A stretch of 64,000 bases of DNA from Saccharophagus degradans 2-40 (GCF_000013665.1 NC_007912.1:4399684-4463683); one strand, 5' to 3'; shown: positions 277 to 54,965, numbered from the stretch's first letter. Notes: generated from the sequence alone by a model not told the origin. Numbers and translations: made by a program.

Positions 277-747
277 TTACTTTATTGGGCTTGGCTTCGG
301 TTTTTGCAGGCGGTCTATCTCCTGCTGGAACTCGCTTAAATCTTGGAAACTACGGTACACAGACGCAAAGCGCACATAGGCAACTTGGTCTAGGCTACGC
401 AATTCTTCCATGACTTTCTCGCCAATCATTAATGACTTAACTTCACGCTCACCCAATGCTTGCAGGTAATGCTTAACGTTTTGCACAGACGATTCAATGG
501 CCTCTACGCTTACCGGCCGCTTCTCTAACGCGCGCTGCAAACCTGCGCGCAACTTCTCTTCGTCGAATGGCTCGCGGGTGCCATCTTGCTTAATAACACG
601 CGGCATAACCAGCTCTGCGGTTTCGAACGTGGTAAAGCGGTCGTGACAGGTTAAACACTCACGGCGACGGCGCACTTGGGCTCCGTCGGCCACTAATCGA
701 GAGTCGATTACTTTGGTATCTGTTTCACTGCAAAAGGGACAATGCAT
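277..747 (-). CDS. nrdR: Transcriptional repressor NrdR (zinc ribbon plus ATP-cone)
   Basis: The translation [70 protein letters not shown] shows the CxxC...CxxC zinc ribbon and an ATP-cone. The ORF track extends to 843, but the conserved NrdR start MHCPFC maps to the ATG at 745-747. Confidence 0.9.
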
Positions 748-907
748 AGCGCTTAAGCTCTTGCTTGGGCAAATTGCGCGCATGATACCACAAATAGCGC
801 CAATTCCGCCCCTAAAGACACGGCAATGCATTGCGCTACACACCCCTTAATTTTGCGCTTATCTGATGTAAATCAAGCCTCTGCTTGATTGCCATTTCGC
901 ACCGCAT

Positions 908-972: not shown

Positions 973-2079
973 ATGCTCGACTGGGACACCCTAAACAACG
1001 CCAAACCCGCCCCTACTGGCACCACAACCGAGCAACCCCGCTCTGCCCTAGCAGGCCAAGCTGCCACCCCGAACGCGCAGGCCCCAGTTTGCGCAAGTGA
1101 CAAACGCGTGATTAACGGCCACACAGACATCAACCAATTAGCGCCCTTTAAGTACCCTTGGGCGTGGGACTTTTTTATAAACGCCAATAAAAACCATTGG
1201 ACCCCACTGGATATAAACATGTCGCAGGATGTGTACGACTACAAACACAACCTCACCGAAGCTGAGCGCCACATGTACGAAAATGTGCTGTCATACCTCA
1301 CCACCTCCGACATTTTAGCCATGCGCAACATTGGCCTTGCGGTGATGGAAAAAATGACCGCACCAGAACTACAAATATACCAAGCCCGCCAAGTGTATGA
1401 AGAAGCCCTGCACACATGGACCTACCAACACTGCATAGAAACCCTCGGCCTTGATCAAGGTGAAATATATAACCGCTACCGCGTGGTGCCAGAAATAAAC
1501 GCCAAAATACAAATGGCCAACCGCAGACTAGAAAGTATTTTGCGCAGCGATATAGACCTAACCGACCCAGACCAACTTAACAATTTTATATTGGCCTATA
1601 TCTTTTTTGCCGCAGTGTTTGAAGGCTGTTGGTTTTACAATGGTTTTAGCCCAATATTTGCTCTGCAGCGCCGCGGTTTAATGAAAGGCACAGCAGAACA
1701 ACTGCAATACATAATGCGCGACGAAACCATGCACTGCGCCTTTGGCATTCAAACCGTATCGCAGATTATTATAGAAAACTGCACCAACATAGATGTAGAC
1801 GCAATTAAAACCATGTGGGAAGAAGCCGACGAAGCCGAGGCAAATTACGCGCGCTATATATTACGCGAGCCAATTTTAGGCTACAGCGCCAACGACCATA
1901 TAGAACAGTTTAGATTTATCGCCAACCGCCGCGCGCGCCAGCTGGGCTTAGAAGAACCCTTCCCGCAGGCTAAATGCGCACTGCCTTGGCTAGATGAGCA
2001 AGCCAATATTCGCAAAGAAAAAAACTTTTTTGAAACCCGAGTAATTGAATACCAAGCGGGCGGACTAGAATGGGATTAA
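973..2079 (+). CDS. nrdB: Ribonucleoside-diphosphate reductase class Ia small subunit (R2/NrdB, Pseudomonas-type with long N-terminus)
   Basis: Supporting motifs are FKYPWAWDFF, an iron-ligand context (EGCWFYNGF...ETMHCAFG), and the typical R2 length and C-terminus. No adjacent nrdA is present in the window. Confidence 0.9.
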   Translation: MLDWDTLNNAKPAPTGTTTEQPRSALAGQAATPNAQAPVCASDKRVINGHTDINQLAPFKYPWAWDFFINANKNHWTPLDINMSQDVYDYKHNLTEAERHMYENVLSYLTTSDILAMRNIGLAVMEKMTAPELQIYQARQVYEEALHTWTYQHCIETLGLDQGEIYNRYRVVPEINAKIQMANRRLESILRSDIDLTDPDQLNNFILAYIFFAAVFEGCWFYNGFSPIFALQRRGLMKGTAEQLQYIMRDETMHCAFGIQTVSQIIIENCTNIDVDAIKTMWEEADEAEANYARYILREPILGYSANDHIEQFRFIANRRARQLGLEEPFPQAKCALPWLDEQANIRKEKNFFETRVIEYQAGGLEWD

Positions 2080-2760: not shown

Positions 2761-2835
2761 AGTTGATTGTTTTGTGCCAGCGTAGCTGAAAAGCACAAAA
2801 CGAGCAACGCAGTGGAGGTCGGTTTGAGCTGTTTG
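2761..2835. repeat. Hairpin repeat copy 1 (AGTTGATTGTTTTGTG...CACAAAACGAGC...CAGTGGAGG)
   Basis: Nearly identical 5' half to 4911-4950. It shares the GCACAAAA(C/G)(G/A)AGC...CAGTGGAGG motifs with 6221-6262. The internal inverted repeat is ttgttttgtg/cacaaaacga. Confidence 0.6.
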
Positions 2836-2918
2836 ATACTTATGATGACCTCCTCCTCCGGAGACCAATGGAAACCTTCTAAACTTAAATCACCACAACA
2901 AAAGTTAATTAAAGAAGG

Positions 2919-3975
2919 AGATCATCATATGAGATTTTATACCATTTCCCACAAACATTACTGCGGAATAGATTTGCATACCAAAATGATGTACGTCTGC
3001 ATACTTGATTCTGATGCTAACATACTGATTCATAAGAATATACCTACTAATGGTAAGGCGTTTTTAAAGCTCATAGCCCCCTATCGTGAAGACATTGTCG
3101 TAGGCGTTGAGTGCATGTTTTCTTGGTATTGGCTGGCTGATTTGTGCGCCAAAGAAGGCATCGAATTTATCTTAGGCCATGCACTTTACATGAGGTGTAT
3201 TCACGGCGGAAAGGCCAAAAACGATAAAGTTGACTCGGAAAAAATCGCACGCATTATGAGAGGCGGCGATTTCCCTCTCGCCTATGCCTATCCTGCCGAG
3301 CTTCGGCCTGTTCGCGACCTCATGCGTAGACGAAGCCATTTGGTTCGCATTAAGAGTGAGATTCAAAGCCATATTAGTATCACCAACTACCAATATAATC
3401 TTGAGCCGTTCGACAAAAACATCGTTCACAAAGGTAATCGCGAAGGTATAGCAGATCACTTCGATAACGCTTCTGTACGACTTAATGTTGAAACCGATAT
3501 TGCCGTTATGGACAGCCTTCACGATCAGATACGGAACCTCGAAAACTACATTATCAGGCATGCGAAAGACTACGATGGCCGAATGTTGTACCGATTAAAA
3601 ACAGTTCCTGGGATTGGCGATATTTTGGATTTAACAATCATGTATGAAATTCTATCGATCGATCGCTTTCCAACGGTTCAAAATTTTTGTTCATACTCCC
3701 GTTTAGTTAAATGTGCGAATGAGTCGGCTGGCAAAAAAATGGGGACATCAGGCTCAAAAATAGGTAACGCTCATCTAAAATGGGCCTTTTCTGAAGCGGC
3801 TATTTTATTCATACGTGGAAATGATAAAGCTCAGAAATATGTTACTAAATTAAGCAAGAAGTTTGGCAAAGGTAAAGCGCTGTCCATACTATCTCACAAA
3901 TTAGGACGCGCTATTTATTTTATGATGAAAAGGAACGATGTCTTTGATATGAATTACTTTTTTCGAAATAGTTAA
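2919..3975 (+). CDS. IS110-family transposase/recombinase (DEDD RuvC-like N-domain plus C-terminal Tnp domain)
   Basis: A strong RBS (gaaggagatcatcat) precedes the ATG at 2919. The motifs are MRFYTISHKHYCGIDLHTKMMYVCILD (the typical IS110 N-terminus G-I-D-x-H) and a C-terminus ...GIGDILDLTIMYEI...NAHLKWAFSEAAILFIR. Confidence 0.9.
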
Positions 3976-5000: not shown

Positions 5001-6101
5001 TTATTCAAAACTGCAACTATCATATGTTAGATAATTTGGTATTGAATTCATATTTGAGAATGAAAATGATTTTTTTAAAACTTCACTGTTTACTACATCA
5101 GAGTCAGAAAACTGAATAGATGTTAACCCAGCTAGGGATTTAATACTTTCATCATTTATGTAAGATTCGTGAATGTTTTTACTGATATATACATCTTCAG
5201 ATAAGCTGAATATTATAAAATTGATGGCAGCTAACCTCTCAGTCTTAGATAACTTTCGAAACTGCTTGTAAAATGACCGATATCTTTTATCATTTTTGTC
5301 AATAAAGAGCATTATTATACTTTGTGACTCTAAAGGAAAAACTGAAACGTGTAATGACTGTAGCTTGTATTTTTTTGATTTATTGTAGACATTATTAATG
5401 ATGTTATCATCAAGATCAAAATGTAAAGACAACTCACCTTGAAATGCCATTGGGACAGTGTAATCTAGCTTTTCGTAGTAGAATAGGTAGTATTCATCTT
5501 TATAGCCTTTATCTATGATTCGTTTAGCTCGCTTAAAACTCCTGATATATTCATTTAAATCAAGTCTATTTATTTCATTTGTTTCAATAATATATTTTTC
5601 CATAAAACTACCGGTAGAAGCTCCATTGAATCCAGGTATTCCATCTTTCATTTTATCGTACAAAGAAACCTCAAATAGCCGCTTATCTATATTCCTCAAG
5701 TGGTTTTTCATTGCTATTTGAGCGATCATTTTATCTGTTGGGTCATTGATGTAATTATCCTTGTTTTCGTATTCTCTAAATATGGCACTGTCACAATTTC
5801 TACAAATAATACGAAATGTTCCAGAATTATTTACTCCTTTCTCAGAATCAATAAATGGCAACTCTATCAATTCGTTGTTCGTATACAATTCACCGTCTAC
5901 TGAAATATTTCTAAGGAAAGAAGCAGGCACTGAATGAGAATTGCAAAACTGAGTAGTGTCTTTTGCGCAATAGAAACATTTCGACGGTTTAGATTCCATC
6001 CTGCTTATTGAAGATATTTTGCTTTTAAGCTTCCTGAATTCTATTAAATCAGAATTCGATGAACTATCAGAATGGTCGCCTAAATTAAGTAGTTTGCTCA
6101 T
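5001..6101 (-). CDS. AT-rich hypothetical protein with an N-terminal Cys-rich Zn-binding/HNH-like motif (CFYCAKDTTQFCNSHSVP...ICRNCD)
   Basis: A 366-aa ORF with no competing frames. Its GC content is much lower than the surrounding DNA. It has paired CxxC clusters with an intervening SHxVP segment reminiscent of HNH (DHIxP) nucleases. The remainder is Lys/Asn/Tyr-rich and unknown. Confidence 0.6.
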   Translation of the reverse strand: MSKLLNLGDHSDSSSNSDLIEFRKLKSKISSISRMESKPSKCFYCAKDTTQFCNSHSVPASFLRNISVDGELYTNNELIELPFIDSEKGVNNSGTFRIICRNCDSAIFREYENKDNYINDPTDKMIAQIAMKNHLRNIDKRLFEVSLYDKMKDGIPGFNGASTGSFMEKYIIETNEINRLDLNEYIRSFKRAKRIIDKGYKDEYYLFYYEKLDYTVPMAFQGELSLHFDLDDNIINNVYNKSKKYKLQSLHVSVFPLESQSIIMLFIDKNDKRYRSFYKQFRKLSKTERLAAINFIIFSLSEDVYISKNIHESYINDESIKSLAGLTSIQFSDSDVVNSEVLKKSFSFSNMNSIPNYLTYDSCSFE

Positions 6102-6262: not shown

Positions 6263-6640
6263 CAGGCCGGAACGGTGTTTTAGCGTTTTGTTATGAGAGA
6301 CCACGAACCATACCTACAACACCTTAAATATTTTATTACCAACTAAATTGATTAGTAACCCATACATGCTTTTGATTTTACTTATAGCCGCGTTGCCTTT
6401 ACACCAAAGCAGTAGCACCAACCTTCTGCGCTTTAAGTAGGATTTGCAAAAAAGCGAAGAAAATACTCGCTAAAATTGCGTTTAGCCTAGTACTTTTTCA
6501 GATGGAATGGAAGTGAAAAACCGAGGAAAAAGCCATCCCATAGCGCATACAAATTCACAAACCCCAGACACCCACTTTAACCATTGACACCCCATTAATG
6601 CAACGCTATAAATAACTGTATATTCAGACAGGAGGTCGAC

Positions 6641-7879: not shown

Positions 7880-7990
7880 AGTGCCTGTCTCGATTAGTAT
7901 TTCGATTAGTATTTCCTGTCTCGATTAGTATTTCTAGTGCCTGTCTCGATTAGTATCGATTAGTATTTTGTCTCGATTAGTATTCTTTAT
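7880..7990. repeat. Complex tandem repeat with core TCGATTAGTATT (about 6 copies) and variable CCTGTC / CTAGTGCCTGTC prefixes
   Basis: Read directly from the sequence. It lies in the convergent intergenic region between the Y1 transposase and the GspG-like gene. Confidence 0.8.
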
Positions 7991-8417
7991 CAACAATTCG
8001 ACCGTAAACAAATTCAAACTGAGGATCTCCATAACTCCATACAAAGGGTAATTCGACTCCGTTTACAGATATATATCCATAATTATATTTTCTTCCCCAA
8101 GGGTCTAGTATCTCACGATCAATATACGGTTCTCCGCCTGATTTACCATTTCTGTATAACACAGACAAACCGACAGCCCCCTCAGGGTACGCTCCAAATT
8201 CATTGCGATAAAAAACAAGAGCTGTTTCGATATTTAGCAAGTCGAAGCGCATCTGTCCCTCAGAGCTTAAATTAAGCTTCGCATAAATTTTCGCTACGAG
8301 TATCCCAAGTGCCAGACCAACAAAAAAGATAAAAATCATTAAACTATTCTTAATCATAATACACTCTGCATATTGGACGATATAAGTGGCCTTACCATAT
8401 TGAGGTTTTGATACCAT
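7977..8417 (-). CDS. GspG-fold (type II secretion major pseudopilin-like) protein that lacks a prepilin leader
   Basis: The C-terminal region ...ALVFYRNEFGAYPEGAVGLSVLYRNGKSGGEPYIDREILDPWGRKYNYGY matches the GspG core (YP..L..L......P.DPWG..Y.Y). The N-terminus is an ordinary TM helix (MIKNSLMIFIFFVGLALGILV) with no G|FTLIE site and no Glu at +5. The likely real start is the internal Met (MIKNSL). The locus is AT-rich. Confidence 0.5.
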   Translation of the reverse strand: MVSKPQYGKATYIVQYAECIMIKNSLMIFIFFVGLALGILVAKIYAKLNLSSEGQMRFDLLNIETALVFYRNEFGAYPEGAVGLSVLYRNGKSGGEPYIDREILDPWGRKYNYGYISVNGVELPFVWSYGDPQFEFVYGRIVDKEY

Positions 8418-8760: not shown

Positions 8761-11019
8761 TCAGATTTGAAACTGAGATAGAATCGTATCATCTTTTATT
8801 TTGCTATCATTGGCCAAAAGAAACGCCTTACTTAGAATTATCGATAGCATATAATCCTCCTGAAACGGAAGAAATAATTTATTAACTTTTCGCATACTCG
8901 CTGAAAAATGAGTAGGGACAATACACAAATATTGATCGTTAGGGCTCATCAATATATTGCCGCTTCCCAAATGTATTTTATATTGTCTCTGGTCTCCATT
9001 AACGATTAGAAAGCGTTCTATCAGTTCACACTTTTTCGATATATTGAGCTTAGGAAGAATATGACGTAGGGCGGTTTTTCTTGTGTCGGCAGTGGAAGTA
9101 AGCTCGCCAAATGCGGTACTGTCCCAAGTACCCAGATAACCCTCTATACCGCTTTCTTTCCACTCTGGGTCCGTTGCTACGCTGCACACCCCAACGAATA
9201 GATCCACGTCTCTCATCAATTCGCTAAACACAATTTCGGGAACATCTTCAATGCAAATTCGATTGCCATCGACACTAAAAAATACTTGATCTGTAGCTAG
9301 ATATTCGTAGTAGCCAGACGCCGTCTGATGCTCTTTGGCTACCTCCTGCACAGAGAAGGTGGCTCTCACTAGCGGTGTAGATTTTTCTGCATTATTGTGC
9401 ATGCGGTATTCGCCACCGTCACCAATCATGTTAAAGCTCCACCCGCGCTGCTTAGCTAAGGCAGCAAATTTTGGCTGAAATATAATATGTGCAGCGAAGC
9501 GATTAGAGTATTCTTTCGTTTGCCTTTCGGCGTCGGTGATAACATACACCTCCCTAAACGCCTGCTTGAATGGCTGAAGCACCTCCGAATCAAAAATGAA
9601 AGTCTGCCACGCCTCACTTTCAGATAGTGTCGCCCGGACAGGATGCCAAAGCTTCATTCGAGCCACTTCATTCTTTACGGCGACGTTAACACCATCGCAT
9701 CCTACCAAACCCTCCCCCCTCCACATGCAGGAGAATTGCTGATTTTCTTGGGAGCACACCCATATCAAATCTCTAGCAATGGCACCCAACAAAGGATTGT
9801 CAATAAAACGCTCCTTCCATTGTTGGAAGCTCCACTCTCGATCTTTAAGAAAATAGGATTCAATCCGCGTACGCCACCCTGACAAGCTGCCCTCAATGGC
9901 CTTCTGTAGTTTTTTAAATGATTTTATTTCATCCACATAACTACGTTTTATTTCCGCAGGTACTGCTTTATGTGTTTTTAAGCCACTATTCCAAACCAAC
10001 GTTACTTGCTTACCATCTTCTATTTTTATAATGCCTTCAATATCGTCGAACCACTCCCTCACTTCGAAGTCGGAATTTAACTCCATAGTCGGAACAGAAA
10101 TTTCATGAATATCATCGTCATCAAAACCCGACGCGGATAGATTATCACGAATCTCTTTTGTTTTTCGCTTAATAAAAGAGCTCGTTTGCGAATACTCGCA
10201 TGCATCGTATATTCGATTTATATACCCTAACGCTGAGTCTAAATTCATTTCGGACAGTATTAGAACAGTAGCGTTAGTGATTTTTTTTGAGCGCGCCCCA
10301 TAGCCAGATATTTTTTTAATACAGGATACACCCACGCTGCTAATAACGGAGGCCATTCGCTCCGACTCAATTAACCCGCCCAACCAAACTAAGCCTTTTA
10401 TAGTATCTATATTTCTCGAGTGGAATATATAACCTGTACGCTTTGCAACATATTCGAATCCCTCATCCCAAGCGTAATACGAGCACGAAGTTCGCTTGGG
10501 GTTCGTCACCAGATTAAGCACAAGCTCTAATTCACGAACCAACATATCATCGTTTTCCACTAAAACCTTAGCTGTCTTCTTCCATGCAGGCGAAGGTTTA
10601 CTGGCCGACACATTGGCCATTTCTAACACATTGTTCCAAATAGCTTTTCGCTCGTCGCTCAGCCCGTTAAACCACTGATATAAATCTGCCGCCCACTGGT
10701 CGTATGCCACGTTAGGGCATACTTCTTTTTTCGCAGTTCGCACACGTACATTGATAAGAAATAATAAAAACTCATACTCTTTAAACACCGCTTTTAACTT
10801 ATTATGTAGAGCATCAACTTTTTCAAGTTCACCCTCTTTAATATCCACACTATCCATAAACCGGCCTAGCGCCATAAAAAAATCGCCGCCACACCCTGAA
10901 GATTCACTCTCACAACCCGCAAAGAAATCATCAGCATGGGCAATTAGCGCCTCCATGGAAATCAGTACACTATTTTTCACTATAACTATCCTTTTTTGTA
11001 TTTTTCTAACCGCCAACAA
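8761..11019 (-). CDS. Large hypothetical protein (752 aa), last gene of the Ubl-containing operon. A possible DUF4132-like C-terminal region (YKIHLGSGNILMSPNDQYLCIVP) is recalled from memory, not verified.
   Basis: A long uninterrupted ORF whose start overlaps the stop of the upstream Ubl gene by 14 nt (translational coupling). No P-loop, ThiF, UBC or JAB motif was recognised by eye. Confidence 0.65.
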   Translation of the reverse strand: MLAVRKIQKRIVIVKNSVLISMEALIAHADDFFAGCESESSGCGGDFFMALGRFMDSVDIKEGELEKVDALHNKLKAVFKEYEFLLFLINVRVRTAKKEVCPNVAYDQWAADLYQWFNGLSDERKAIWNNVLEMANVSASKPSPAWKKTAKVLVENDDMLVRELELVLNLVTNPKRTSCSYYAWDEGFEYVAKRTGYIFHSRNIDTIKGLVWLGGLIESERMASVISSVGVSCIKKISGYGARSKKITNATVLILSEMNLDSALGYINRIYDACEYSQTSSFIKRKTKEIRDNLSASGFDDDDIHEISVPTMELNSDFEVREWFDDIEGIIKIEDGKQVTLVWNSGLKTHKAVPAEIKRSYVDEIKSFKKLQKAIEGSLSGWRTRIESYFLKDREWSFQQWKERFIDNPLLGAIARDLIWVCSQENQQFSCMWRGEGLVGCDGVNVAVKNEVARMKLWHPVRATLSESEAWQTFIFDSEVLQPFKQAFREVYVITDAERQTKEYSNRFAAHIIFQPKFAALAKQRGWSFNMIGDGGEYRMHNNAEKSTPLVRATFSVQEVAKEHQTASGYYEYLATDQVFFSVDGNRICIEDVPEIVFSELMRDVDLFVGVCSVATDPEWKESGIEGYLGTWDSTAFGELTSTADTRKTALRHILPKLNISKKCELIERFLIVNGDQRQYKIHLGSGNILMSPNDQYLCIVPTHFSASMRKVNKLFLPFQEDYMLSIILSKAFLLANDSKIKDDTILSQFQI

Positions 11020-11344
11020 GAGGCACCAATTTTAAAAGCGTAATAACAGTACCATTTGAGAAAACGATTTTCTCATCAAGACTTTCTATTTGAACATCAT
11101 CAACCAGTATTACAAACCCGTTCGCCTCAAATGACTGCTTAAGAGCACGATAGGACTCCGTCAAAGTACTTTCCTGCAAACCTCCTTTTGCATTCCTCCT
11201 CCCATTTTGCTGAAGCAGAGTCTGGTTTATTTTTTCTTTTAGTACGTCCCCGACAGAAACCGGCCCATCGGGCACGGTCAAAAACAACGACATTACCTCT
11301 TTTGAGTACAGCGCTTCTTCTTTGATATTTACACTAACACCCAT
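11006..11344 (-). CDS. Ubiquitin-like beta-grasp protein with a C-terminal di-glycine (…VITLLKLVPLVGG-stop)
   Basis: The C-terminal 35 aa (FVILVDDVQIESLDEKIVFSNGTVITLLKLVPLVGG) resemble the ubiquitin/ThiS/MoaD tail (…TLHLVLRLRGG). The stop codon follows GG immediately. The ORF is 112 aa. Confidence 0.5.
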   Translation of the reverse strand: MGVSVNIKEEALYSKEVMSLFLTVPDGPVSVGDVLKEKINQTLLQQNGRRNAKGGLQESTLTESYRALKQSFEANGFVILVDDVQIESLDEKIVFSNGTVITLLKLVPLVGG

Positions 11345-11423
11345 TCTATTTCTCGCATGATATTGTTACAACAATTAGAACCAAGGCACCAATAGCCATG
11401 AATACCAGTACATAAATTTAGCT

Positions 11424-11735
11424 TTACTGCAAATCGCTTTTAATAACCCCTCTTGCCAAACACAAATAATAGCCAACCTCTAGCAACAAGCCTAACAACA
11501 CAACACTGGCAACCAAAATAGGCATACCCAAGCCCGCAGACTGGACGGCCAAACAGATTGCAATGGAAACCAATACAGCTACACCAGCAGTGGTGAATGC
11601 TGACTTTTTGTTAACGGTTATATTCTTATGGCAACCACCGCATGGAATAGACGCGGGATTAACCGCCCGCAACACATCCCAAAAAGAAAGTTGTTTAGCG
11701 CAGTGGGGGCAATTTTTCATGGGTAGAATTCTCAC
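11424..11735 (-). CDS. Zinc-ribbon membrane protein (CPHC...CGGC followed by two TM helices)
   Basis: The translation is MRILPMKNCPHCAKQLSFWDVLRAVNPASIPCGGCHKNI followed by hydrophobic segments. It lies 5 bp downstream of the SPOUT gene. Confidence 0.5.
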   Translation of the reverse strand: MRILPMKNCPHCAKQLSFWDVLRAVNPASIPCGGCHKNITVNKKSAFTTAGVAVLVSIAICLAVQSAGLGMPILVASVVLLGLLLEVGYYLCLARGVIKSDLQ

Positions 11736-11740
11736 ATAAT

Positions 11741-12226
11741 TTAATGGGTTGGGCGTTTAAACTTAAAGCCCTGAATGGCGTTGCACTCTTCTCTATCTTT
11801 AGTATACACATTAAAGATAATGCCACAGGCGGTATTAACATTAATAGACGCGCCCGTACCGTATTGAGGAATATACACGCAATAATGGCAACGCTTTAGT
11901 ATATTTTCGTGAATGCCATCACCTTCGTTACCCATAATAAAAAGCGTGTCTCGTTCGAAGCGCATTTTATTTATCGATTTAGCCTGCTCGGTAATTTCCA
12001 CCCCCACAAAATCGTAACCGGCTTGGCCATAGTATTCAAAGGCTTCGTCTATTTGAAAAAAGTGTCGGAATTTAGTGGTAGAGGCGGTTTTTTGATTGCC
12101 ATAGGTAGAGAACTTTTTGCGGCCAATAACGCAAATTTCTTCGGCCCCAAAGGCATTAGCGGTACGGATAAGCTGACCAATATTGGTATTGCTTTGTACA
12201 TTAAAGATTAGGAGAACAAATTTCAT
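11741..12226 (-). CDS. SpoU/TrmH-family (SPOUT) RNA 2'-O-methyltransferase
   Basis: The translation NIGQLIRTANAFGAEEICVIG...FIMGNEGDGIHENILKRCHYCVYIPQYGTGASINVNTACGIIF is the SPOUT knot with SAM-binding motifs. The ORF track begins at a GTG (12235). An ATG lies at 12224-12226. Confidence 0.8.
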   Translation of the reverse strand: MKFVLLIFNVQSNTNIGQLIRTANAFGAEEICVIGRKKFSTYGNQKTASTTKFRHFFQIDEAFEYYGQAGYDFVGVEITEQAKSINKMRFERDTLFIMGNEGDGIHENILKRCHYCVYIPQYGTGASINVNTACGIIFNVYTKDREECNAIQGFKFKRPTH

Positions 12227-12339
12227 GGGTTGCACCGTAGCAATTGGTGGCTTAAGACATCTACATTCATTATTGTTTGCTTTTTAAAGCTTTGCCTCGT
12301 CGACAGCTTGGGGGACGATCATACCTACAAATAAAATTA

Positions 12340-12835
12340 GTCACCAATCCAACGCACCATTAATCAGCCATTCGAACCGGCTGAGCATTCAAAATGGCCA
12401 CGCCAAGGATGGCGTGACCAAGCTACACGGATGTATTTACGCGTTTTTGAATGCTTAGCCGGTTTGAGTGGCGAGCTACAGCGAAAAAACAACACACAAT
12501 AAAACTCTCCATACACGTACCCCAACCAGCCAATCGAATCGGCTGAGCATTCAAAATGGCCACGCCAAGGATGGCGTGACCAAGCTACACGGATGTATTT
12601 ACGCGTTTATGAATGCTTAGCCGGTTTGAGTGGCGAGCTACAGCGGAAAAACAACACACAATAAAACTCTCCATACACGTACCCCAACCAGCCAATAGAA
12701 TCGGCTGAGCATTCAAAATGGCCACGCCAAGGATGGCGTGACCAAGCTACACGGAAGTATTTACGCGCTTTTGAATGCTTAGCCGGTTTGAGTGGCGAGC
12801 TACAGCGACCAACACACATGCCCACCTTTATTCAA
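12340..12835. repeat. Three tandem copies of a ~165-170-bp structured repeat unit
   Basis: The unit ...aatcggctgagcattcaaaatggccacgccaaggatggcgtgaccaagctacacggatgtatttacgcgtttttgaatgcttagccggtttgagtggcgagctacagcg... recurs at 12379, 12541 and 12712. Each unit holds a 15-bp inverted repeat (gctgagcattcaaaa / ttttgaatgcttagc) enclosing a second hairpin (ggccacgcc...ggcgtgacc). Copies are >95% identical. Confidence 0.9.
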
Positions 12836-54814: not shown

Positions 54815-54939
54815 TTTTTTCGTCCACTTGAGTTAAGTTGACGAAAACTATATTTTTTGGTGTAGCGCAGGGTTAGCTGTCACATAGAACAGATAACTTT
54901 TATTCTTTAATTATCAATAACTTACATGAAAATATCGCG

Positions 54940-54965
54940 CACTGTAAGATATTACAGGTAGTGCG
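54940..54965. promoter_or_regulatory. lux-box-like imperfect palindrome (cACTGTAAGATATTACAGGTAGTGc)
   Basis: A CTGTAA-N4-TTACAG core flanked by GCACT/AGTGC, ~125 bp upstream of the luxI-family start. It resembles the lux box consensus ACCTGTAGGATCGTACAGGT. Confidence 0.45.

Follow-up and report, generated by a model that had tools for sequence, protein, structure and literature searches.

Which genes belong with a small bacterial gene whose product ends as ubiquitin does, and what might they do together? The question is posed by a locus of Saccharophagus degradans 2-40, lying in a stretch of 64,000 nucleotides (GCF_000013665.1 NC_007912.1:4399684-4463683, referred to below as the window) in which four co-directional open reading frames (ORFs) are called on the minus strand within positions 8761-12235, just where an initial annotation made from the sequence had placed them. 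In order of reading these encode a SPOUT methyltransferase of the SpoU/TrmH type, a small Zn-ribbon membrane protein, a 112-aa ubiquitin-like protein (Ubl) and a much larger protein, and the initial annotation took all four to be a single operon of defence or conflict type. The answer argued for here is that the conserved unit is a two-gene module, comprising the Ubl gene and its large DUF4132/DUF7737 partner, in which the pairing is near-obligate and extends over about ten phyla, and that the functional context to emerge for this module is DNA damage, not defence.

The 112-aa product does end ...TLLKLVPLVGG, followed immediately by the stop codon, as the initial annotation had read it. When this protein was used in a HMMER scan of 1.84 billion cluster representatives (E ≤ 1e-3), 266 representatives of its family were found, nearly all of them 75-170 aa in length and aligned through to their C-termini. 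Among the 149 best representatives 146 end in GG, which lies inside the near-invariant motif F-[LIV]-[KR]-L-[VTI]-P-L-[VI]-G-G; because of this proportion the GG terminus of the family is far beyond chance, and the supposition that it would be conserved in orthologs proves correct. In an alignment of 113 sequences Q85, G111 and G112 are invariant, F103, L106, P108 and L109 are each conserved in at least 90%, and conservation is highest along the tail. Comparison of these 113 members with Pfam gave no meaningful family match, ThiS (PF02597) and MoaD included, and the family of the 112-aa protein is matched by neither Pfam nor NCBIfam; those members that carry a name from their source are all labelled “hypothetical protein”. 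The distribution was taken from a pattern scan in which each GTDB species was represented by one genome and for which all counts are lower bounds: at least 551 species genomes have a confirmed Ubl locus, and these belong to about ten phyla (Acidobacteriota, Chloroflexota, Planctomycetota, Actinomycetota, Bacteroidota, Pseudomonadota, Gemmatimonadota, Cyanobacteriota, Armatimonadota and Deinococcota). The S. degradans protein is roughly 30% identical to typical members; in a word-indexed search that recovered only a cluster from the same species it had looked like an orphan, an impression overturned by the full HMMER scan.

As to the fold, AlphaFold 2 (AF2) supplied with the family alignment predicts a confident β-grasp (predicted local distance difference test, pLDDT, 90.4; predicted template modelling score 0.80), in which the elements follow the order b1-b2-a1-a2-b3-b4-b5 and the tail, residues 106-112, is of low confidence (pLDDT about 54); given the single sequence, AF2 performs poorly (pLDDT 53). 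The top four Foldseek matches to this model are all MoaD, and the best structural matches comprise MoaD, SAMP1, CysO and ubiquitin, so that the β-grasp fold proposed in the initial annotation is borne out at the level of a structure model. Since homology is not seen at the level of sequence, the relation of the Ubl to ThiS and MoaD rests on fold and terminus. As modelled, then, the 112-aa gene represents a new and widespread MoaD-like family of ubiquitin fold, ending in GG.

A side observation concerns variation of the Ubl within S. degradans. Between the window and another contig of the species (L003, 7636-7974) the Ubl gene differs at 6 codons, of which 6 are nonsynonymous and 0 synonymous, whereas in the flanking genes synonymous differences outnumber nonsynonymous ones by about 2:1 between strains. 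The differences affect position 94 and the surface made up of a1-loop-a2, and the strands and the tail are identical; this could reflect diversifying selection on one surface, the numbers being small.

Pairing with the large protein was assessed from both directions. ORFs were called at 80 genome loci containing the Ubl gene and searched with hidden Markov models (HMMs) of the Ubl and DUF4132 families, and in 75 of them a DUF4132 gene is directly adjacent on the same strand, mostly downstream of the Ubl with a gap of 0-10 nt or a small overlap, and occasionally upstream. The reverse check was made on 80 metagenome loci chosen by DUF4132 motifs alone, and thus unbiased with respect to the Ubl; here a Ubl gene was found in 67 cases, directly upstream in 63 of them, and as 11 of the loci are truncated this amounts to 67 of the 69 that can be judged. 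An independent witness is the RefSeq annotation of Chondrinema, where a 130-aa hypothetical protein is followed after a 1-nt gap by a DUF4132 protein, and a partner protein that is fused to a WGR domain also has a Ubl gene, 3 nt upstream. Despite the 0-10-nt spacing, no fusion of Ubl to DUF4132 occurs among the matches or loci, which argues that the C-terminus of the Ubl must stay free. The idea that the Ubl might be the split-off N-terminal domain of longer DUF4132 proteins was considered and rejected: the homologs have separate Ubl genes of their own, and the fused form does not occur.

Nothing else accompanies the pair with any regularity. Clustering of neighbouring ORFs within 6 kb at the 80 genome loci revealed nothing recurrent besides DUF4132, the best candidate being an ABC ATPase at 10 loci. 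When the SpoU and Zn-ribbon proteins of S. degradans were compared with 7609 ORFs from the 160 loci of other organisms, one non-adjacent SpoU-like ORF was found and no counterpart of the Zn-ribbon protein; their near-absence means that the conserved unit has two genes and not four, and that the SpoU and Zn-ribbon genes are local neighbours specific to S. degradans. Thus, where the initial annotation had raised the possibility of constant company with both the large protein and the SPOUT enzyme, the first association stands and the second does not. In the literature on DUF4132, DUF7737, YehI, MolR and WGR no description of the pairing with a Ubl was found; pairing, family and distribution all appear to be undescribed in the searchable literature, one member having been studied without being recognised as such.

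The partner itself had been described in the initial annotation as a 752-aa protein with nothing recognisable in it, a description that no longer holds, as Pfam assigns it both DUF4132 (PF13569; 6.6e-49) and DUF7737 (PF24879; 8.1e-38), at 166.7 and 129 bits respectively against a cutoff of 27. It is 96% identical to an NCBI entry named ‘DUF4132 domain-containing protein [Saccharophagus degradans]’, and across the family the partner is about 740-890 aa in size. Its N-terminal half gives only weak helical-repeat matches. From about residue 440 to the end, by contrast, there is a C-terminal module with many polar residues that are invariant in 259 proteins (H446, E477, R494, H498, D593, H670, N675, C686, D709 and K718, in the numbering of the 752-aa form), the last five of these lying in the DUF7737 region. 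The motifs of the module are WHP, QPFKQAxRExY, LTDAE..T..YSNRFAAH, TDQVxF, E..RDVDLFVGV.S, YKIHLGSGNILM.PN..YLCIVP, LPFEGD and LSKA. No similarity of the partner to solved structures or to Pfam catalytic families was detected, ThiF, UQ_con and JAB among them. A possible relationship to BcrAD_BadFG was dropped, having appeared in 3 of 40 members and not been reproduced in a further 10.

Evidence for the functional context comes from two phyla. In Actinobacteria, a motif conforming to the PafBC (RecA-NDp) consensus tGTCgg(N10)tA(N3)T (PMC8635444) precedes the predicted Ubl start by 27-31 nt at 19 loci, against a background of 0.0015 per search window; all 19 are from this phylum (Micromonospora, Plantactinospora, Streptomyces, Catellatospora and Hamadaea). 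This placement implies that PafBC activates transcription and that the transcripts are leaderless and headed by the Ubl gene, and the actinobacterial pairs, carrying as they do the promoter motif of the PafBC regulon, are predicted to be regulated in this way. In Deinococcus the evidence is already published: drA0165-drA0166 is a target operon of DdrO, and DRA0166, a DUF4132 protein, shows IrrE-dependent induction by mitomycin C (PMC8533742). Its neighbour DR_A0165, published under the name “SEP068184”, is up-regulated after gamma-irradiation and H2O2; its deletion leads to higher and its overexpression to lower H2O2 resistance, it binds thioredoxin Trx1, and its predicted structure was noted to resemble MoaD and SAMP1, the authors judging it to be Deinococcus-specific (PMC9650054). 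The sequence given in the supplement of that paper ends ...LLRLTALAGG and scores 52.5 bits against the family HMM, which makes it a family member. Two phyla thus link the module to the DNA-damage response. A scan of 141 Ubl upstream regions found no enrichment of LexA boxes of the gamma, alpha or Gram-positive type or of the radiation/desiccation response motif (RDRM); a separate scan for palindromes in common was blank, and in the other phyla no motif shared upstream of the Ubl genes came to light.

It may be added here that a metagenome-assembled genome of Deinococcales (L074, 69-984) has two tandem Ubl paralogs, ending ...FLKLVPLVGG and ...LLRLVALAGG, which overlap by 11 nt and precede the DUF4132 gene; DR_A0165 of D. 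radiodurans corresponds to the second type.

The defence or conflict reading is not supported, having gained no positive evidence: PADLOC returned no match for any gene of the window cluster, the Ubl does not occur in phage records or viral contigs, and among 72,556 plasmid-labelled records only 4 contain it, all of them large non-mobilizable replicons. The verdict of the initial annotation on this point is accordingly not upheld.

How, then, might the module work? The reading we prefer begins with the first gene specifying a β-grasp protein with a flexible, near-invariant tail that ends in a free Gly-Gly carboxylate, and the second gene, close-coupled to it in translation, supplying a protein consisting of a helical-repeat N-terminus, DUF4132 and the conserved C-terminal module that ends in DUF7737. 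The two products would form a dedicated complex, in which the ...LVPLVGG tail would enter the C-terminal module of the partner, much as MoaD enters MoaE, and the terminal Gly carboxylate might then be adenylated and converted into a thioester or thiocarboxylate, the invariant Cys686 being a possible site. Activation could come from a housekeeping E1 of ThiF/MoeB type encoded elsewhere or from the partner itself, and the output would feed the response to DNA or oxidative damage; the occasional WGR fusions suggest that damaged nucleic acid may be sensed. We infer, in particular, that the target of the partner's action is the Gly-Gly terminus. As a whole this reading, in which a dedicated complex, chemistry at the terminal Gly and a damage-response output all come together, seems to us evenly poised between right and wrong.

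Several observations weigh against it. The pairing has exceptions, in that of the five genome loci lacking an adjacent DUF4132 gene (two being cut within the N-terminus of the partner and two being uninformative contig ends) one is a true orphan Ubl (L067), two of the 69 judgeable DUF4132 loci have full flanks and no adjacent Ubl (L113 and L126), and the closest DUF4132 homolog outside the species (P0003, at locus L005; 50% identity) likewise has none beside it. Genes for E1, E2, JAB, rhodanese or another sulfurtransferase, cysteine desulfurase or biosynthetic enzymes are not conserved near the Ubl at any of the 80 genome loci, and the partner shows no similarity to E1, E2, isopeptidases or sulfurtransferases, whether by Pfam on 40 + 10 members or by profile searches of the PDB. 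A resemblance of DUF7737 to the UBC/E2 fold (H-x4-N-x10-C followed by a helix) had to be discarded, hhalign assigning it a probability of 4.4%; for membership of the ThiS/MoaD family at the level of sequence hhalign gave 0.3%, against a small profile of five sequences (ThiS, MoaD, SAMP1, CysO and TtuB). In Deinococcus, N- and C-tagged versions of SEP068184 pulled down overlapping partners (PMC9650054), and these overlapping interactomes, like the deletion phenotype, do not point to GG-dependent conjugation. The link to damage is itself not uniform: an RDRM upstream of DR_A0165 is absent according to PMC9650054 and present at -83 according to PMC8533742, and a search for a LexA box at the S. 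degradans locus, which is gammaproteobacterial and so not one to which the PafBC motif applies, found none.

We give roughly equal weights to three roles, namely protein conjugation, sulfur transfer and a purely non-covalent one, each of which can be framed as an explanation in its own right. In the first, the partner would itself activate and ligate the Ubl using ATP and Cys686 or a Lys, onto itself or onto targets, as part of the DNA-damage response and with no E1 at all. The obligate, close-coupled pairing with no other conserved gene would be natural for such a system, as would the invariant Cys, His, Asp and Lys of the C-terminal module, a long conserved tail reminiscent of the LRLRGG by which ubiquitin is recognised, the DNA-damage regulation and the fact that Ubl-DUF4132 fusions are never seen; yet neither sequence nor profile relates the partner to E1, E2, ATP-grasp or any other adenylating fold, the known bacterial conjugation systems all include an E1, usually accompanied by a JAB or another peptidase, and the Deinococcus study reported no conjugates (PMC9650054), so that we consider the explanation unlikely. 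Much the same must be said of the boldest form that the proposal can take, namely that Ubl and partner together might be a complete, minimal two-component Ubl system switched by DNA damage, in which an enzyme unrelated to E1 would activate the Gly-Gly and pass the Ubl or sulfur on, with the enzyme itself or targets at damaged DNA as recipients; we hold it to be doubtful.

If instead the pair were a sulfur carrier and its user, a housekeeping MoeB/ThiF-type E1 together with a sulfurtransferase would convert the Ubl to its thiocarboxylate and the partner would be a MoaE-like sulfur inserter. This would sit well with MoaD, SAMP1 and CysO being the best structural matches, with a GG end that is exact and lacks a propeptide, as in sulfur carriers, and with the binding of Trx1 and modulation of H2O2 resistance by the Deinococcus member (PMC9650054); there is also a historical link of DUF4132 to molybdate utilisation through E. 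coli molR, as PMC8533742 relates. It would sit badly with neighbourhoods that contain no rhodanese, E1, cysteine desulfurase or biosynthetic genes, with the lack of sequence homology to ThiS and MoaD, with DNA-damage regulation and WGR fusions, both unusual for cofactor biosynthesis, with E. coli MolR/YehI having neither a Ubl nor the C-terminal module, and with the molybdenum cofactor genes not being co-regulated in Deinococcus (PMC8533742). On balance it is improbable.

A third explanation is that no chemistry takes place at the C-terminus and that the Ubl serves as an adaptor or chaperone in stoichiometric amounts, with its tail plugging a pocket of the partner. The β-grasp proteins TmoB, RnfH and YukD provide precedents for acting non-covalently. 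Translational coupling and near-1:1 gene pairing would be expected of such a subunit, activating enzymes are not found nearby, and the interactomes of the N- and C-tagged Deinococcus protein overlap (PMC9650054). What tells against it is the invariant terminal Gly-Gly with a stop codon straight after it in more than 98% of members, together with the absence of fusions: termini of this kind are otherwise found in β-grasp proteins whose carboxylate is chemically activated, and non-covalent subunits are not known to conserve GG. This alternative, too, we would give only a small chance. Least tenable of all, and to be thought highly improbable, is the original idea that all four genes make up one defence or conflict operon, the Ubl and the large protein working jointly with the SPOUT methyltransferase and the Zn-ribbon membrane protein, for while the four genes are co-directional with spacers of 20, 79 and 25 nt, are syntenic on three other S. 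degradans contigs and are adjoined by a variable region that contains IS110 and RAYT-like genes, the first two are missing from the other-taxon loci (bar the one SpoU-like ORF already mentioned), the defence, phage and viral searches were blank with negligible plasmid matches, and the site is a fixed chromosomal one by the housekeeping nrdAB/rib genes.

Turning to the window itself, the coordinates of the features are collected in Table 1.

Table 1. Positions of the genes, domains and other features discussed, counted from the first nucleotide of the window.
Feature	Position	Strand	Remarks
nrdR	277-843		
nrdB	973-2079		
IS110 transposase	2767-3975		
366-aa ORF	5001-6101	-	GC 0.31, most AT-rich kilobase of window
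Palindrome CTGTATATTCAGACAG	6616-6631		Exact, LexA-box-like; 25 nt upstream of next ORF
RAYT/IS200-like Y1 transposase homolog, 325 aa	6641-7618	+	Weak Y1_Tnp match
Orphan GspG-like pseudopilin	7977-8417	-	T2SSG 3e-9; directly downstream of DUF4132 gene
Partner gene, 739-aa DUF4132 + DUF7737 protein	8761-10980	-	Probable GTG start 10980; longest ORF, from TTG 11019, 752 aa
DUF7737 domain	8773-9087	-	Residues 632-736 of 739-aa protein; Pfam
DUF4132 domain	9439-9978	-	Residues 335-514 of 739-aa protein; Pfam
AAGGA Shine-Dalgarno	10989-10993	-	8 nt upstream of GTG 10980, within 25-nt Ubl-DUF4132 spacer; read from sequence
Ubl gene, 112-aa β-grasp protein (modelled)	11006-11344	-	Ends ...TLLKLVPLVGG; stop TAG 11008-11006
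Last 10 Ubl codons (LLKLVPLVGG)	11009-11038	-	Most conserved stretch of family; flexible tail in model
Zn-ribbon/two-transmembrane small protein, 98 aa	11424-11720	-	TIGR04104 1e-8, below cutoff; longest ORF to 11735 (103 aa)
SpoU/TrmH-type SPOUT methyltransferase, 161 aa	11741-12226	-	Pfam SpoU_methylase 6.3e-29; longest ORF to 12235 (164 aa)
Tandem repeat	12365-12808		162-nt unit, 2.7 copies, 96% matches; between giant protein gene and SpoU
Giant lipoprotein-like protein, 2836 aa	12910-21420	-	2862-aa counterpart in S. degradans CP160474
CTGT-N8-ACAG boxes	54877-54892, 54942-54957		Exact; 65 nt apart

The 79-nt gap between the Zn-ribbon and Ubl genes agrees with the initial annotation. The overlap it described between the Ubl stop codon and the start of the 752-aa protein is a different matter, as it exists only if the longest ORF, from TTG 11019, is taken. 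A 739-aa product was called by gene callers on three related contigs (L001, L003 and L004), and with this and the Shine-Dalgarno sequence in favour of GTG 10980 the overlap would be a longest-ORF artefact, the real start of the DUF4132 gene probably being GTG 10980 with a 25-nt spacer after the Ubl. For the SpoU and Zn-ribbon genes the likely starts are probably ATG 12226 and ATG 11720 respectively. The SpoU ORF reaches no NCBIfam equivalog cutoff; in the Zn-ribbon protein two CxxC pairs are accompanied by two hydrophobic helices. The region had also been described as an AT-rich mobile island, which holds in part: its GC content of 0.41-0.455 is slightly below the window value of about 0.45, and mobile elements are indeed present. 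On the S. degradans contigs, though, the cluster is flanked by a giant surface protein (with a DUF2059 gene) on one side and by a variable stretch towards nrdB-nrdR-ribD on the other, and the window, with its nrdR, nrdB and IS110 transposase genes (Table 1), is arranged alike, so that the cluster occupies a fixed chromosomal site which the variable, mobile-element-rich stretch (IS110 and RAYT-like genes) adjoins rather than surrounds.

Some further features of the surroundings deserve brief mention. The position of the GspG-like gene is taken by a 143-aa ORF on two of the related contigs (L003 and L004). The giant protein has a (PE)n linker, six repeats of a twelve-residue sequence and Asp-rich motifs resembling thrombospondin type 3. 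Each copy of the tandem repeat next to it contains a hairpin with an 11-bp stem followed by TTTT, giving it the look of a terminator or a repetitive extragenic palindromic (REP) element, and in other S. degradans strains this position is taken by the DUF2059 gene. The 366-aa ORF has an N-terminal part rich in CxxC...C/H and no Pfam, NCBIfam or PADLOC match; it is probably a recent acquisition. The ORF downstream of the LexA-box-like palindrome may be an SOS-regulated REP-associated transposase, and the two exact boxes near the far end of the window probably mark the promoter of an SOS gene.

The significance of these results is, first, that a previously unannotated family with the fold (as modelled) and terminus of ubiquitin and MoaD has been defined in at least 550 species-level genomes, and that for DUF4132 and DUF7737, two domains of unknown function, a concrete functional partner is now at hand for the first time. 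SEP068184, the “stress peptide” of Deinococcus, is recast as a member of a pan-bacterial Ubl family. A link to damage in two phyla under different regulators (PafBC in one, DdrO/IrrE in the other) is testable, genetic tools being to hand in Streptomyces, Micromonospora and Deinococcus. Should activation turn out to be the work of the partner, Ubl chemistry would here proceed without an E1; were an E1 to act in trans instead, this would still be a new damage-induced bacterial Ubl pathway.

Among known systems, the bacterial Ubl operons Bil and Bub, and Cap2/Cap3 of CBASS (cyclic-oligonucleotide-based anti-phage signalling systems), encode E1, E2 and JAB or other peptidases and lie in defence islands, whereas none of these enzymes is encoded at the 160 Ubl/DUF4132 loci; with no such gene nearby and nothing reported by PADLOC, the statement in the initial annotation that this is not a described Ubl system stands. 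Another comparison is with the sulfur-carrier and modifier proteins MoaD, ThiS, CysO, SAMP and TtuB, with which the new Ubl shares the β-grasp fold and the terminal GG. It differs from that group in the sequence comparisons already given (Pfam ThiS and hhalign), in its larger size (about 130 aa, a1 and b3 being separated by an additional helix and insert), in a conserved tail that is much longer (FLKLVPLVGG), in having as partner a DUF4132/DUF7737 protein of about 800 aa instead of MoaE, ThiG or CysM, and in combining DNA-damage regulation with the lack of a biosynthetic gene context.

In E. coli, alignment shows that YehI shares only the DUF4132 core domain. It lacks the YSNRFAAH...DUF7737 C-terminal module and has no Ubl partner, from which it follows that the Ubl tracks with the DUF7737-bearing architecture; the yehF-yehQ locus has MoxR, VWA and SWIM genes instead. 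YehK was considered as an equivalent of the Ubl and rejected, having no HMM match and no GG end. Common to both settings is an association with WGR, through yehF in the E. coli locus and through a fusion in P0010, and for E. coli MolR (YehH) membership of the LexA regulon is reported in work cited by PMC8533742.

A further comparison is with SEP068184/DR_A0165 itself. The publication presents it as a small-ORF peptide specific to Deinococcus, a negative regulator of oxidative-stress resistance acting via Trx1, and its Gly-Gly terminus, ubiquitin-like nature, pan-bacterial spread and pairing with DUF4132 went unrecognised in that paper (PMC9650054). What it shares with the module described here is that it is a member of the Ubl family, in an operon with a DUF4132 protein, induced by radiation, H2O2 and mitomycin C, and predicted by its own authors to be MoaD-like (PMC9650054, PMC8533742).

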